Source: Malacoraja senta (lineage: Eukaryota). Taken from it: 64,000 nucleotides of DNA. Made by a program: the position numbers and the translations under genes. Under the pieces are notes generated by a model. The model did no database searches and was not told where the DNA came from. It was given only the letters and a program-made list of their open reading frames with translations. The stretch lies in NCBI GenBank assembly GCA_038087875.1, contig CM075988.1, positions 21,640,001-21,704,000 on the forward strand, read 5' to 3'. Shown here in pieces: positions 1,076 through 54,784 of the stretch (position 1 is the stretch's first letter; the number at the start of each line of letters is the position of its first letter).

Positions 1076-1216
1076 AGCGGGGTGGAAGATTGCAACCTTC
1101 ACGTGGTCCGCCCTGTTTCGACGAATGCAATCAACCTGGCGTGCACAATCAAATAAGATCAATAGAACATGTTGTCCTACAACTTTAGGCTGTGCACGCC
1201 ATACGCAAGAAGAAGA
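1076..1216 (+). mobile_element. Short non-autonomous retroelement (family A): HDV-like ribozyme head and (GAA)n tail, inserted into a V-SINE
   Basis: 9-bp TSD AGCGATCTC at 1067-1075 and 1217-1225; tail CCATACGCAAGAAGAAGA; 11-bp inverted repeat TGGCGTGCACA/TGTGCACGCCA (1137-1147/1191-1201). Confidence 0.85.
1079..1132 (+). ncRNA. Minimal HDV-like (delta-like) self-cleaving ribozyme, family A
   Basis: P1 GGGGTGG(1079-85)/CCGCCCT(1108-14) with G1.U wobble. P2 GATTGCA(1088-94)/TGCAATC(1126-32). P3 ACC/GGT around L3 TTCACGT(1098-1104). G1115, vestigial P4 TTTCGA, then J4/2 CGAA with putative catalytic C1122. Element order matches the HDV double pseudoknot. Confidence 0.85.
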
Positions 1217-6110: not shown

Positions 6111-6162
6111 GGGGTCAAGGAAAGAGCGTTCACGTCGCTGCCCTGTTTCCACCAATCTTTCC
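6111..6162 (+). ncRNA. Minimal HDV-like ribozyme, family B (copy 1)
   Basis: P1 GGGGTC(6111-16)/TGCCCT(6139-44, one mismatch). P2 GGAAAGA(6119-25)/TCTTTCC(6156-62). P3 GCG/CGC around L3 TTCACGT. Then G, TTTCCA and J4/2 CCAA. Confidence 0.8.
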
Positions 6163-6286
6163 ACCACCATACACAAGAAGCACAAGAAGCGACAAGACAG
6201 ACACCATTGTATGCAGATGCCGAGAAGTGTATTCGGCTCTGGCTGAACAACTTCTAATCTTGTGTGTGGGCTCGATAAGAAGAAGG
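6111..6286 (+). mobile_element. Short non-autonomous retroelement (family B): HDV-like ribozyme head and (GAA)n tail
   Basis: 11-bp TSD CTACACG(C/T)GAC at 6100-6110 and 6287-6297. The insertion starts exactly at ribozyme G1. A homologous copy lies at 49771-49946. Confidence 0.85.
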
Positions 6287-46668: not shown

Positions 46669-49600
46669 GGAACTGCCATCAATACTCCAAACGCCCGGTC
46701 AGATCAAGATCACTGCACTTACAACAACTGGGACTTGAGAATGGAGCCAAGCTGGCGACTCTGTACACTGTCGCAGTGCACCACTGCTATACACTTGTAC
46801 TGTATCAGAGATGTGTATCTAATATGTATCTAAGTGCGAATGTATAGTGATACCTGTACCGAACTGTATACAAAAATGAATTTCACTGTACCTTAGTACT
46901 TGACAAATAAGGTTCCGTACCAGACCATAACAAATGCAGCCTAATATGCTGAATAACATCCCCATTCTCTCTCCCCCTCTCTCTCTCTCTCCCCAGATAT
47001 ATTCTACTCAATAAATCCGCGTCAGTGCCAAGCTGAGTGATTTGCTTGCTCTACCCACAGAGTATAAATCCAGTCCCACGTCAGTGGAAGAGTCCACAGA
47101 ATTATCGGAGCACTTTGCGAAGCTAGCCAACATCAATTTAAATATTCTTCAACATGAGGGATGATATTGATGGCGAACGCCGTCTCAGGCCCTGTGTCAT
47201 TTTTAATTTGAATAACTGTTCCCAACTATGAAGCTGTTACACACTGGCGATTCTCCAGTCCTTTGATGATAAAATATGATCTGTGTATGCGGTGAATCTC
47301 TATAACTAAAACCATGATGCAGTGATGTACGGAGAATGGAGCAGATTGCACCCATTACCAGTCAGAGGAGAGGTGATTATGGGGCACTGCTTTCATGGGG
47401 AACTAGCAGGATTTGCTGATAGTGGGTTTCAGGTTGGATGGTATCAGTTCCTGCAGAACAACAAAATGATTCAGTCAAAGACCCACAACCTTTAGAAGTG
47501 TGTGAAAACGCACGCCTCCAGATTCAGGATTCTGAAGAAAAAGTTGCCCCTCAGGTTTCTATTAAATCTTTCCCCTTCGCCTTAAAGCAATATCCCCTGG
47601 TTTTTGATTCCGCTACCCTGGGGAAAAGATTTTGTGCATTCAACCTATCTATTCTCCTCATGATTCTATACACCTCTATAAGATCAGCCCTCAGCTCCCA
47701 AGGAAAAAAGTCAGAGCCTGCCTTAGCTCTTGCTAAAGCTCAAACCCTTGAGTCTAGGCAACATCCTTGTAGAGCAACATCCGTGAAGAATAATTAGGCT
47801 AATAATTCATAGCTAAGCGAGGAGTGAGTTAACAGGTCTGAAGAAGAGTCTCCCATTCACCCGAACGTCACCCATTCCTTCTCTCCAGAGATGCTGCCTG
47901 TCCCGCTGAGTTACCCCAGCTTTTTTTTGTCTATCTCCAGATCCAAGGACGGTTTCTTCCCGGCTGTTATCAGGCAACTGAATCATCCTACCACAACCAG
48001 AGAACAGTGCTGAACTACTATCTACCTCATTGGTGACCCTCAGACTATCCTTGCCTGGATTTTGCTTGCTTTACCTTGCACTAAACGTTATTCCCTTATT
48101 ATGTATCTGTACACTGTAAATGGATTGATTGTAATCATGTATTGTCTTTCCGCTGACTGGTTAGCACACAACAAAAAGCTTTTCGCTGTACCTCGGTACA
48201 CGTGACAATAAACAGGTATCAACTGATACAAACAAGGAACTACAGATGTTGGTCAATACACAAAAGGACACACAATGCTGGAGTAACTCAGCGGGTCAGA
48301 CAGCATCTCTGGAGAACAAGGACGGGTGACGGGAGAAGAAGGAACGACCGGGGTGGGACAAATCTTCGATTACGTTAGCAGCTTTACTAAGGCAACGTTC
48401 AGTTCAGTTTAGTTTATTGTCACGTGTACTGAGGTACAGTGAGAAGCTTTTGTTGTGTGCGAACCAGTCAGCGGAAAGACGATGCATGATTGCAATCGAA
48501 CCATTTACAGTGTACAGTTACATGATAAGGGCAAGGTAACGCTAGGAAAATAAAGTGTAAATGCAGTCAATGGTGGGATGTCTGGTGTGAGTGAGGGACT
48601 GGGCTACATCTGCGGCTCTCTTGCAATTCCTGCAGTCTTGGGCAGAGCCGTTCCCAAACCAAGCTGTGACGCCACCCGTCAGTACACTTTGTACGCAGCA
48701 TCTCTAGAAGTTTGTATGAGACATGCCGAATCTCTTCAGTCGCGAAGGAGTAGAGGCTTTAGTGTGGCTTCTTGGCTATCGCAGCAATGTGGTTGGTCCA
48801 CGACGGATCCATTGGTAATGTCAACGCCAAAGCTCTCAACCCTGCCCACTTCAGCACCATAGATGCTGATTGGGGCATTACTCCACCACGATTCCTGAAG
48901 GAATTACATTGAGAGTGGGAAATCTGGAACGTTTCCAGGGAATTCCTGGGCACCCTGCACACAGGCCTGACCCTTTACATAATCCTTGGATCATCCCAAC
49001 CCTCCCAGGGCTCTTCCTCTCCTCCGCCTCTGCCAGCCGTTAATTCTACACAGCGCACCAACCCTTCCCTTGGCTCTGGATGACCAACCTGAGTCAGTTT
49101 CTGCTCGAGGTGTCTCTTGCTCTCCTGTTTAGAGGGCTATCAAGTCAAGTCAATTTTATTTCTATAGCACATTTAAAAACAACTCTCGTTGACCAAAGTG
49201 CAGGTACTAAGTGCTACATCCAGTGGTACATAGATCTAACATAGATCATAGATACATACATACAGCGCTCCCTCAGAGGACCTCAAGAAAAGCTTGAGAG
49301 TAGAAATAAGTTTTAAGTCTAGAATTAATGGAGTTGATGGAGGGGGCAGTTCTGATGGGGAGAGGGATGCTGTTTCATAGTCTAGGCACAAGCACATGGG
49401 ACTAGCCTGGATGGGGCATCTTGGTCAGCATGGATGATATGGGCCGAAGGACCTGTGTCAATGCTGTGTGACTCTACGACACCCTTGTATGGTGTTTAAC
49501 AGTTGTGTGGATTGGGCGCTCGCTCGCCCAGGGCCAAGCTTCTGCAGTACACAGGGCGGGTTGAGAAGGAAAAATAGATCAGCTATGATCGAATGGCAGG

Positions 49601-49770
49601 GCAGACTTGATGGGCCGAATGGCCTAATTCTCCTCCTATGTCTTATGGTCTTCAATGGGAAGAGAGATAGAAGTTTAAGTCAGCATGGATAAGATGTGCC
49701 AAAGGGCCTGTTTCTGTGTTGTATAACTCCTTGACTCTTCCACCATTCACCTACACACTAAGGTTAACTT

Positions 49771-49946
49771 CTTCTTGTCGAGTCCACACACAAGATTAGA
49801 AGTTGTTCAGCCAGAGCTGAACACACGTCTCGGCATCTGCGTACACTGGTGTCTGTCTTGTCGCTCCTTGCGTTTCTTGTGCGTGGTGGTGGAAAGATTG
49901 GTGGAAACAGGGCCGCGACGTGAACGCTCTTTCCTTGACCCCATTA
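49771..49946 (-). mobile_element. Family B ribozyme-headed short retroelement (copy 2)
   Basis: 12-bp TSD TAAGG(T/A)TAACTT at 49759-70 and 49947-58; (GAA)n tail; homologous end to end with 6111-6286. Confidence 0.85.
49891..49942 (-). ncRNA. Minimal HDV-like ribozyme, family B (copy 2, all helices intact)
   Basis: Minus strand reads GGGGTC AA GGAAAGA GCG TTCACGT CGC GGCCCT G TTTCCA CCAA TCTTTCC. Confidence 0.85.
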
Positions 49947-53745: not shown

Positions 53746-54784
53746 CATAGATGCTGCCGCACCCGCTGAGTTTCTCCAGCACTTTTGTTTACGATCAAAG
53801 GGGACGTTGCTCAAGGAAATGTAGAATGGTTCATTGTTAGCTGGGGGGTAGGTGACAACAAGGCATAAGTCTGAAGAAGATTTTGTGTCTATCTTTGATG
53901 TAAACCAGCATTTGTAGTTCCTACATATATATATATATATATATATATATACGCACACATTGAACTTTTTTTCTCGTTTATTACATTATTTACAGAGTAT
54001 TGTGTTCACATACTCAGTTGTGCAACTGTAAGTACGAATGTCATTGTTCTATCTGGGACATATGACAATAAAACACTCTCTTGACTCTATGCAAATGTGT
54101 GGTGAGGTAATGTTAAAGGGGGATCATGAAAGAGGTGAGTTTGTCGTGGGGTCCATCATCAAGAGACAGTGTTTACATAAGCTCATTGCAGATTCACAGC
54201 AGACAGTGACATTTTGACCTACCCCTGCAGACAGCATCAACCATCGCGGCAGCTACCTTTCAGAGTTGCGTTCTGAAGGGTAGTCACCCTCCGCTCCCAC
54301 ACAGCTGCTGAAGCAAGGTTGAAGTTCACGTTGAGGCAGCAAAACCCTTCATCCAGTGGAGAGTGCGATCGGCACATTGCGATGGAATAACTATTGAAGT
54401 GGCAGCCTGTGGACTGGCGAACAATGAAAGCAGCGTAATTAAAATTCATTTGGTGTTTCTTCCAGACCCCAGCCTTGGATCCCAGCCAGGTGCAGCATGA
54501 AAGAGGTGAGTAATACTGGTGAACACTTCAGAGAATCTCTCCTGCAGTAAAAACACATCTATACCTGCCCTGCAGTGTGGAAACCTTAGTGTTTGTCCTA
54601 CAGAGTAATTAGAACATTACAATAGTAGTATATATTTTTATTTTTTAGTAGTGTATATTTTATTTCGAAGATGTAAAACAAAAAAAGTTAAAAACAAAGC
54701 AAAATAGCAATAAAATGAAATGAACAATAAACCTATACACAACTCATTGAATGACTTCTCATAAACAACACAAATTTAATCTTA

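Follow-up and report, generated by a model that had tools for sequence, protein, structure and literature searches.

In the window, by which we mean the whole 64,000-nucleotide stretch of contig CM075988.1 analysed here (positions 21,640,001 to 21,704,000 of the forward strand), positions 1079-1216 are occupied by a short repeated element that we call family A. We propose, with a probability of roughly 75%, that this element is a promoter-less retroposon of the non-LTR (non-long terminal repeat) kind, whose head is a double-pseudoknot ribozyme fold like that of hepatitis delta virus (HDV), belonging to the branch of the CPEB3 ribozyme and having its helix P4 reduced to a 7-nt linker; the element would release itself from host transcripts and would be mobilised by an RTE-like long interspersed nuclear element (LINE). 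What is established is the element itself, its copy number and its exact 5' end, a fold with compensatory changes, the kinship with CPEB3 by way of a second family (family B) and of a LINE (LINE-C), and the LINEs themselves with their anatomy.

A young retroposon with a uniform 5' end

A preliminary description of this DNA had reported a 141-bp insertion with a 9-bp target-site duplication, and had placed the predicted cleavage site 3 nt from the insertion boundary. The insertion and its duplication were both recovered; the lengths, however, had to be revised, as the duplication of 1067-1075 at 1217-1225 extends to 12 bp. Because this 12-bp duplication ends at 1078, the element comprises 1079-1216, that is 138 bp, and it begins with G1 of the predicted ribozyme fold. 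The predicted cleavage site thus falls on the insertion boundary itself. The parts of the insertion are as follows.

1067-1078, + strand: left target-site duplication AGCGATCTCAGC, identical to 1217-1228 at 11 of 12 positions
1079-1216, + strand: whole family-A element (ribozyme head, closed stem-loop body, short 3' motif and (AAG)n tail), delimited by genome copies and contig breaks
1137-1201, + strand: body, a multibranch domain with an 11-bp long-range stem (1137-1147 with 1191-1201); minimum free energy (MFE) -23.8 kcal/mol, z -3.8
1200-1216, + strand: 3'-terminal motif CATACGC followed by the (AAG)n tail, identical at 15 of 17 bases to CATACGACAGAAGAAGA, the 3' end of a LINE that we call LINE-1
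1207-1216, + strand: tail AAGAAGAAGA, as read in the sequence
1217-1228, + strand: right target-site duplication AGCGATCTCCGC, partner of 1067-1078 with one mismatch

The host of the insertion is another repeat, and three of its paralogues in the window (at 2712, 10946 and 58651) represent the empty site: they show one or two mismatches to the joined flanks, and no match was obtained in any of 100 shuffles. In a search of the 1.94-Gb genome, 40 of 563 first-look candidates were scored, and all 40 were full length and 96-100% identical; a 22-nt core of the element (TTCACGT...GTTTC) is present at 2,624 genome places. Thirty family-A loci were fetched (loci carry L numbers below), among which 14 copies of one repeated segment were counted as one, leaving 17 independent loci. 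A duplication of 8-15 bp (mode 12) was detected by script in 16 of these, and all 16 have no extra base before G1; in the 17th (L005) the tail was too long for the script and the duplication was read by eye. Genomic 5' ends unrelated to G1 had been named beforehand as a finding that would speak against the ribozyme, and every independent family-A copy examined begins at G1. As to the repeated segment, it is at least 3.1 kb long, it holds 14 of the 30 best family-A matches and it recurs on 14 scaffolds at 95-96% identity (L002, L007-L012, L014-L020); the idea that it might be a transcribed RNA-gene cluster or a master locus found no support, a scan at the Rfam gathering thresholds having returned nothing.

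DNA contigs from three organisms break at 1079 and at 1216-1218, and sequencing runs of seven organisms contain 22-69% of the sampled words, part of which belong to the host repeat; in terms of sequence, this points to the occurrence of family A in several related species. Among the copies, in several organisms, about half of the reads carry A1086G (in J1/2), G1123T is the mark of a subfamily in which J4/2 reads CTAA, and 1137 is another variable position, while most of the other frequent differences are CpG decay.

The genome copies, duplications and empty sites bear out the initial view of a short non-autonomous retroposon, and family A is young, abundant and present in high copy number. No tRNA gene was found by ARAGORN in 900-1400, and an E-value scan of 1000-1300 against Rfam gave no match to a small RNA (tRNA, 5S, 7SL or snRNA). 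The element is thus, as first described, without a tRNA-like head for RNA polymerase III (Pol III), and by the same two programs family A has no head of the Pol III type that is classical for short interspersed nuclear elements (SINEs).

The ribozyme fold and its relatives

All the pairings and segments that had been proposed for the head (P1, P2, P3, L3 and J4/2) are present at the coordinates given for them, and they are listed here together with the linker that separates P1 from J4/2.

1079-1132, + strand: P4-less HDV-like (CPEB3-type) ribozyme fold, supported by the pairings, a match to Rfam RF02682, a descriptor and covariation; predicted cleavage 5' of G1079
1079-1085, + strand: P1 5' strand GGGGTGG, pairing with 1108-1114 through seven standard pairs, G1079.U1114 and U1083.G1110 included
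1088-1094, + strand: P2 5' strand GATTGCA, forming seven Watson-Crick pairs with 1126-1132
1095-1107, + strand: P3, ACC (1095-1097) with GGT (1105-1107); it encloses L3, and its 3' strand abuts P1'
1098-1104, + strand: L3 TTCACGT, the same in families A, B, LINE-C and D and in the Rfam CPEB3 consensus
1108-1114, + strand: P1 3' strand CCGCCCT, pairing with 1079-1085
1115-1121, + strand: linker GTTTCGA replacing J1/4 and P4, whose initial GU could pair with A1101-C1102 as a candidate P1.1
1122-1125, + strand: J4/2 CGAA, with C1122 at the position of the catalytic cytosine, within CGAA as in the CPEB3 consensus
1126-1132, + strand: P2 3' strand TGCAATC, pairing with 1088-1094

The 5' end of family A can therefore be described, as it was at the outset, as a minimal HDV-like fold, in which P1 to P3 consist of standard pairs and a 7-nt linker stands instead of P4. 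The head has P1 starting from the first nucleotide with a G1.U pair, a 3-bp P3 with a 7-nt L3, a covarying P2 and the cytosine of J4/2; a P1 that starts at the first nucleotide with a closing G1 pair is also found in families B, LINE-1, LINE-C and D. A P4 helix is absent from family A, with the seven bases GTTTCGA in its place, and in the account given in PMC10879173 P4 is not a defining part of minimal HDV-like variants. By eye, A1101-U1116 and C1102-G1115 can pair as a candidate P1.1; the GU that follows P1' is invariant in A, B, LINE-C, D and the CPEB3 consensus, and is AC in LINE-1.

A purpose-written pseudoknot descriptor was used to scan 537 kb of sequence, with 12 dinucleotide shuffles of the window (1.54 Mb) as the control. 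It returned 100 hits, distributed among family A (55, some copies being counted at two alternative starts), family B (22), LINE-1 (21) and two unrelated sites, and no hit in the 1.54 Mb of shuffles. The two unrelated hits lie in the window at 47415-47486 and 54628-54688 (+ strand), one of them is very AT-rich, and both are probably due to chance.

Family B, a second ribozyme-headed SINE, was found within the window through two weak matches of the family-A head in a sensitive self-comparison.

6111-6286, + strand: family-B SINE copy with a mutated P1' and the duplication CTACACG[C/T]GAC; its head is closer to the CPEB3 ribozyme
49768-49942, - strand: family-B SINE copy with a consensus head, from the sensitive self-comparison and the descriptor

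Family B is about 175 nt long, gave 1,783 first-look candidates and has a 21-nt core at 805 genome places. Its head reads GGGGTC AA GGAAAGA GCG TTCACGT CGC GGCCCT GTTTCCA CCAA TCTTTCC; a 12-bp long-range stem closes its body (z -4.8; family A, -3.8), which is laid out like that of family A and is unrelated to it in sequence; and its 3' end consists of a few bases after the body followed by (AAG)n. A duplication was found in 26 of 29 unique loci (mode 12 bp), and in 22 of those 26 it directly abuts G1. The last base of the duplication, immediately upstream of G1, was C in 14 of the 16 independent family-A insertions, often as part of CAC, and T in 17 of 30 in family B, a preference of target or of second-strand synthesis that differs between the two families.

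The third head is that of LINE-1, which in full-length form reads GGAGGAG AC AAAGACA GCC TCTACGC GGC CTCCTCT, followed by 38 nt and by CCAA TGTCTTT; it is HDV-like and has a P4. On the Rfam model HDV-F-prausnitzii (RF02682) this head scores 19.9 bits, below the gathering score of 44, in a match that starts at G1. The heads of A, B and LINE-1 were parsed with one descriptor and their pairs were counted by script, because MAFFT, when aligning the head of A with that of B, had shifted family B one base out of register. All pairs of P1, P2 and P3 are standard in the three of them. Between A and B, 16 pairs were compared, of which eight are identical and eight are changed on both sides, with none changed on one side; the corresponding counts are nine, eight and zero for A and LINE-1 (17 pairs) and eight, eight and zero for B and LINE-1 (16 pairs). 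In P2 alone, both sides differ between A and B in five of seven pairs. Outside the helices, L3 TTCACGT and the GTTTC after P1' are identical in A and B, and J4/2 is CGAA in A and CCAA in B; in the Rfam alignments, the CGAA of the CPEB3 consensus was aligned both to the CGAA of LINE-C and to the CCAA of family B. Judged from these comparisons, the fold is backed by compensatory changes across retroelement families.

The consensus head of family B was matched by the Rfam model CPEB3_ribozyme (RF00622) with 31.1 bits and an E-value of 1.1e-6, below the gathering score of 35 bits. Nineteen consecutive bases of this head (AGCGUUCACGUCGCGGCCC) are those of the CPEB3 consensus, its P2 shows covariation, and the 21 positions that the model devotes to P4 are replaced by a 7-nt linker; seven family-B variants ending in GGCCCC score 35.1-43.7 bits on the same model. 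In a genome search with the CPEB3 model, 59 candidates were scored and 51 matches were listed, 39 of them above 35 bits, and about 20 of the listed matches are 74-89 nt long and reach 44-64 bits. All ten of the fetched loci from this search pass the model (52.8-64.2 bits); eight of eight belong to a LINE that we call LINE-C and two of two to a further family, D. One pattern search was made for a CPEB3 core with a linker other than that of family B, and it found none, all 44 places returned being family-B variants.

In the LINE-C loci (L087-L090, L092-L094, L096), the passing ribozyme is the first 84 nt. The head reads GGGGATC AA GGTAGAA GCG TTCACGT CGC GATCCCT, continues with 26 nt of J1/4 and P4 and ends with CGAA and TTCTACC; the open reading frame (ORF) that follows leads into the N-terminus of an endonuclease resembling the one in LINE-1. 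A full-length copy (L088 and L098) measures 3,138 nt, has a 12-bp duplication ending at G1 and terminates in ...ACACGAAAAGAAGAAG. The LINE-C core was found at only about 12 genome places with at most one mismatch. In L097, the LINE-C reading frame appears to enter the (AAG)n tail without a stop. Family D (L091, L095) has a longer P4, GCA/TGC as P3 and CTAA as J4/2, and its two copies diverge from one another about 115 nt from G1.

Compared with the LINE-C head, the head of family B is 84% identical over 37 nt and that of family A 66% over 38 nt. Family A has the fold of the mammalian CPEB3 ribozyme, together with its L3 (UUCACGU), the GU after P1' and the CGAA of J4/2; unlike that ribozyme, it has no P4, its P1, P2 and P3 have other sequences, and it is not matched by the model. 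The CPEB3 ribozyme is moreover single-copy and intronic, whereas here the fold heads dispersed, multi-copy retroelements. Because L3, the GU after P1' and CGAA are common to family A and the consensus, and because of its kinship through family B and LINE-C, the most fitting description of family A is that of a divergent, P4-less representative of the CPEB3 branch, an affiliation absent from the preliminary description; by score, it is not a member of RF00622.

RTE-like LINEs as candidate mobilisers

LINEs of the RTE clade are about 3.2 kb long, with a single ORF that encodes an apurinic/apyrimidinic endonuclease and a reverse transcriptase (RT), a very short 3' untranslated region (UTR) and a microsatellite-like tail. 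LINE-1 was found through a 5'-truncated element in a fetched locus, which ends ...AAAAGACATACGAC(AGA)n, and its C-terminal 201 amino acids gave 5,929 first-look candidates. The domains RVT_1 (1e-35) and Exo_endo_phos_2 (1e-6) were recognised on adjacent frames of one broken reading frame, whose stop codon is separated from the (AGA)n tail by 14 nt. The presence of both domains, the 14-nt 3' UTR of LINE-1 and the 3,138 nt of LINE-C with its 12-bp duplication agree with the RTE plan, so that by anatomy both LINE-1 and LINE-C look RTE-like. In a protein homology search, the relatives of LINE-1 form a widespread family of about 1,000 amino acids with endonuclease and RT, on contigs of 3.1-3.5 kb; the nearest named ones are generic teleost entries (65-68% identity), and a protein-cluster comparison of the ORF returned generic RT clusters only.

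The 5' ends of LINE-1 were located at L066:699-783, at L068:824-908 and in L069-L086, with the start codon of the ORF inside P2', which recalls a link of the ribozyme to translation initiation reported in PMC7761336. Of 20 rows of 5' ends, a set that includes three duplicate pairs, 13 begin GGAGGAG or GGGGGAG at G1, and the other rows are truncated or abut an inverted LINE piece. There are two LINE-1 subfamilies, in which P1 is closed by G1.U or by G1-C. In four of the 20 rows (L070, L071, L076, L086), an inverted piece of the element's own 3' region lies directly upstream, which has the look of a 5' inversion of the twin-priming type. In L066, an insert of about 105 nt at ~981-1086 is another abundant repeat (...GGTTTCGGCCCGAAACGTTACC...), also found in L061 and in the window.

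Both LINEs have a tail of the (GAA)n type and a 5' ribozyme, as the SINEs do, and in the few copies in which they could be read (the L003 fragment and L064, by eye, and the full-length LINE-C) their duplications are of about 10-12 bp. At their 3' ends, family A and LINE-1 share CATACG[A]C[A]AGAAGAAGA, or 15 of 17 bases, an older variant of family A (L061) is identical to the 3' end of LINE-C at 18 of 19 bases, and by eye the end of family B, GACTCGATAAGAAG, resembles that of LINE-C, GACACGAAAAGAAG. An autonomous LINE sharing both ends with family A had been predicted; the expectation held for the kind of ends, a 5' HDV-like ribozyme and a (GAA)n-type tail, and failed at the level of sequence, where 15 of 17 or 18 of 19 terminal bases are shared and the heads are 66% identical. 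A LINE with the exact ends of A or B was sought by pattern searches, which returned only SINE variants, such as the family-A subfamily with J4/2 CTAA, whose body starts AACTCGAT; L061 proved to be one such variant. A genome search with RVT_1 gave about 160,000 candidates of many kinds, too broad a set to single out a partner. On these shared features, either of the two RTE-like LINEs is a likely mobiliser, presumably through recognition of the short terminal motif and the repeat that follows it.

The mobiliser could instead be a LINE outside these two families, for example of the Vingi type. The sequence that family A has in common with the two LINEs is indeed very short, and few of the many RVT_1 candidates in the genome were sampled. 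However, both LINEs combine the tail repeat and 5' ribozyme of the SINE with duplications of its length in the few readable copies, and LINE-1 is the only other element with a (GAA)n-type tail in the 255 kb examined. We regard another mobiliser as unlikely, and the earlier suggestion of Vingi is not upheld, the only LINEs found with this kind of end being RTE-like.

Proposed release, objections and significance

In the mechanism that we envisage, a source copy would be transcribed within a longer host transcript, and its head would fold and cut 5' of G1079 with C1122 as the catalytic cytosine. Because the cut is made 5' of G1079, the ribozyme would stay on the released RNA. The 3' end of this RNA (closed stem-loop body, CATACGC and (AAG)n) would then be used by the endonuclease and RT of an RTE-like LINE for target-primed reverse transcription, which would produce the duplications of about 12 bp. 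Catalysis, the read-through transcription of source copies and the identity of the mobilising LINE are what we infer here.

Several observations weigh against this interpretation. As regards the fold, an Rfam scan of 1000-1300 gave two weak matches only; one of them, to RF02682, covers exactly 1079-1132 and the full model, at 14.4 bits and an E-value of 2.5, where the gathering score is 44. Family A has no match to RF00622 at E-values up to 10. The plain MFE of 1079-1135 is no better than that of shuffles (z +0.45), a measure that is uninformative because the fold is a pseudoknot. The covariation comes from three families in our own parse (five with LINE-C and D), and thus from few independent lineages, and the family-A copies, at 96-99% identity to one another, are too alike for variation within the family to speak on selection. 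As regards the partner, the link consists of 15-18 terminal bases, the type of tail and the length of the duplication; the bodies of the SINEs share nothing with LINE-1 or with the parts of LINE-C that were compared, and pattern searches found no LINE with the last 16-19 bases of family A.

The remaining objections come from RNA. One poly(A)-selected paired run was used, of which about 6% was read, from an organism possibly other than the species of the window. In this run molecule starts or ends accumulate at no reported site, and starts at G1 are not in excess. Upstream of 1079, 160 reads extend into unlike flanks, compared with a mean depth of about 174 in the bin 1076-1087, so that read-through or antisense accounts for the majority of reads at the edge. 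The element is covered in both directions, at depths of about 100-180 and 75-125, sense and antisense being inseparable. At steady state, the poly(A) RNA containing the element is thus mostly uncut or antisense, and efficient constitutive cleavage of all copies is not apparent in these reads. As a negative result this is weak, because poly(A) selection and the instability of uncapped products would hide cut RNA, and because strand and species are uncertain; the RNA reads weigh, lightly, against efficient cleavage and not against the fold.

These reads would also suit a head that descends from a true ribozyme and has become catalytically dead or very slow with the loss of P4. Such a head might be kept as a 5' module, for binding of the LINE protein or for protection of the 5' end, the 5' end itself being set in another way, for instance by a transcription start at G1. 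Besides the read-through and the lack of a pile-up of starts at G1, the absence of P4 and the scores of family A far below the Rfam thresholds favour this explanation. It has to account, however, for P1 to P3 that are fully paired, for the C kept at the catalytic position (also in the CTAA subfamily of J4/2) and for an L3 equal to the CPEB3 consensus, all of this in two P4-less families with thousands of copies; P4-less HDV-like ribozymes are, moreover, described in PMC10879173, and ARAGORN and Rfam revealed no promoter-like head. We consider a dead or very slow head improbable.

More doubtful still is that family A is a short internally deleted element (SIDE), that is, a LINE that has lost its interior, so that head and tail are the two ends of the parent. 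R2 SIDEs arose in this manner (PMC3414825), and the architecture of the head and the last 15-18 bases do match LINEs of the same genome; but the 65-nt body of family A matches neither LINE-1 nor the parts of LINE-C outside its interior, the comparison covering these two LINE families, so that no collinearity with a parent was found, the head is only 66% identical to that of LINE-C and has no P4, and no LINE with the 3' 16-19 bases of family A itself was recovered. Finally, the idea that family A is a standard Pol III SINE, its head unrecognised and its HDV-like fold a coincidence, can be dismissed almost entirely: an internal promoter would also give uniform 5' ends, and GTTTCGACGAA is by eye loosely B-box-like (three mismatches to the consensus GGTTCGANNCC), but the descriptor had no hits in shuffled sequence, the same fold with compensatory changes stands at the first base of independent families that include protein-coding LINEs, fetched relatives pass the CPEB3 model at 52.8-64.2 bits, no tRNA, 5S, 7SL or snRNA match was found, and family B has CCACCAA at the B-box-like place.

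The self-releasing retroposon that we favour has counterparts among known systems. HDV-like ribozymes are reported to stand at the 5' terminus of non-LTR retrotransposons (R2, R4, L1Tc, baggins and RTE), where they cleave at the first base, and such promoter-less elements are processed from co-transcripts (PMC3774820, PMC6765202); those elements are autonomous, whereas family A, with its P4-less head, measures 138 nt, is non-coding and would travel as a passenger. Closer to it are the R2 SIDEs of Drosophila and NARTc of Trypanosoma cruzi, described as non-autonomous elements headed by an HDV-like ribozyme of a LINE lineage and mobilised in trans (PMC3414825, PMC3383444), and family A resembles both in being non-autonomous with an HDV-like ribozyme head. 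The R2 SIDEs, however, are internal deletions of R2 and insert in ribosomal DNA, while family A is dispersed and has a body unrelated to the LINEs; NARTc shares the head of L1Tc, which is also a promoter, while the head of family A is P4-less and only 66% like that of LINE-C.

P4-less HDV-like ribozymes are known from metagenomes and, as theta ribozymes, from phages, and for the metagenomic ones that paper states origin and function to be undetermined (PMC10879173); they have an HDV-like core as family A does, and the context here is a eukaryotic retroposon. SINEs mobilised by RTE, such as Au-like and Bov-tA, are short, have a microsatellite-like tail and have a 3' end in common with an RTE-type LINE (PMC6007223); unlike family A, they have Pol III-type heads and longer LINE-shared 3' regions. 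Searches confined to open-access text turned up no SINE of high copy number and dispersed location with a P4-less delta ribozyme as its head, and no CPEB3-family ribozyme in any retroelement. To our knowledge, the CPEB3 ribozyme has so far been reported only from a mammalian gene.

A SINE whose head is a ribozyme and not a Pol III gene represents a different way of obtaining a defined 5' end. The series from LINE-C and family D, which have P4, to families B and A, which have none, offers a natural experiment on the minimal requirements of the delta fold. The loci that pass the curated CPEB3 model stand at the first base of an RTE-like LINE. We put forward, as a tentative hypothesis to which we give somewhat less than even odds, that the CPEB3 ribozyme of mammals may have arisen by domestication, from a copy of the ribozyme at the 5' end of an RTE-type retroelement. 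The lineage of that retroelement would still be present in this genome as an RTE-like LINE with a complete CPEB3-family ribozyme, as family D with its longer P4, and as the SINEs B and A, in which the core would have lost P4 and come to head a promoter-less passenger that releases itself. If this is true, these elements would be the first outgroups for the CPEB3 ribozyme, and a P4-less delta ribozyme would be shown to be able to drive the amplification of a SINE in a vertebrate-sized genome. Nothing seen in the genome points to a mammal; if it is non-mammalian, the origin of that ribozyme, by capture from a retroelement or by independent invention, would become testable.

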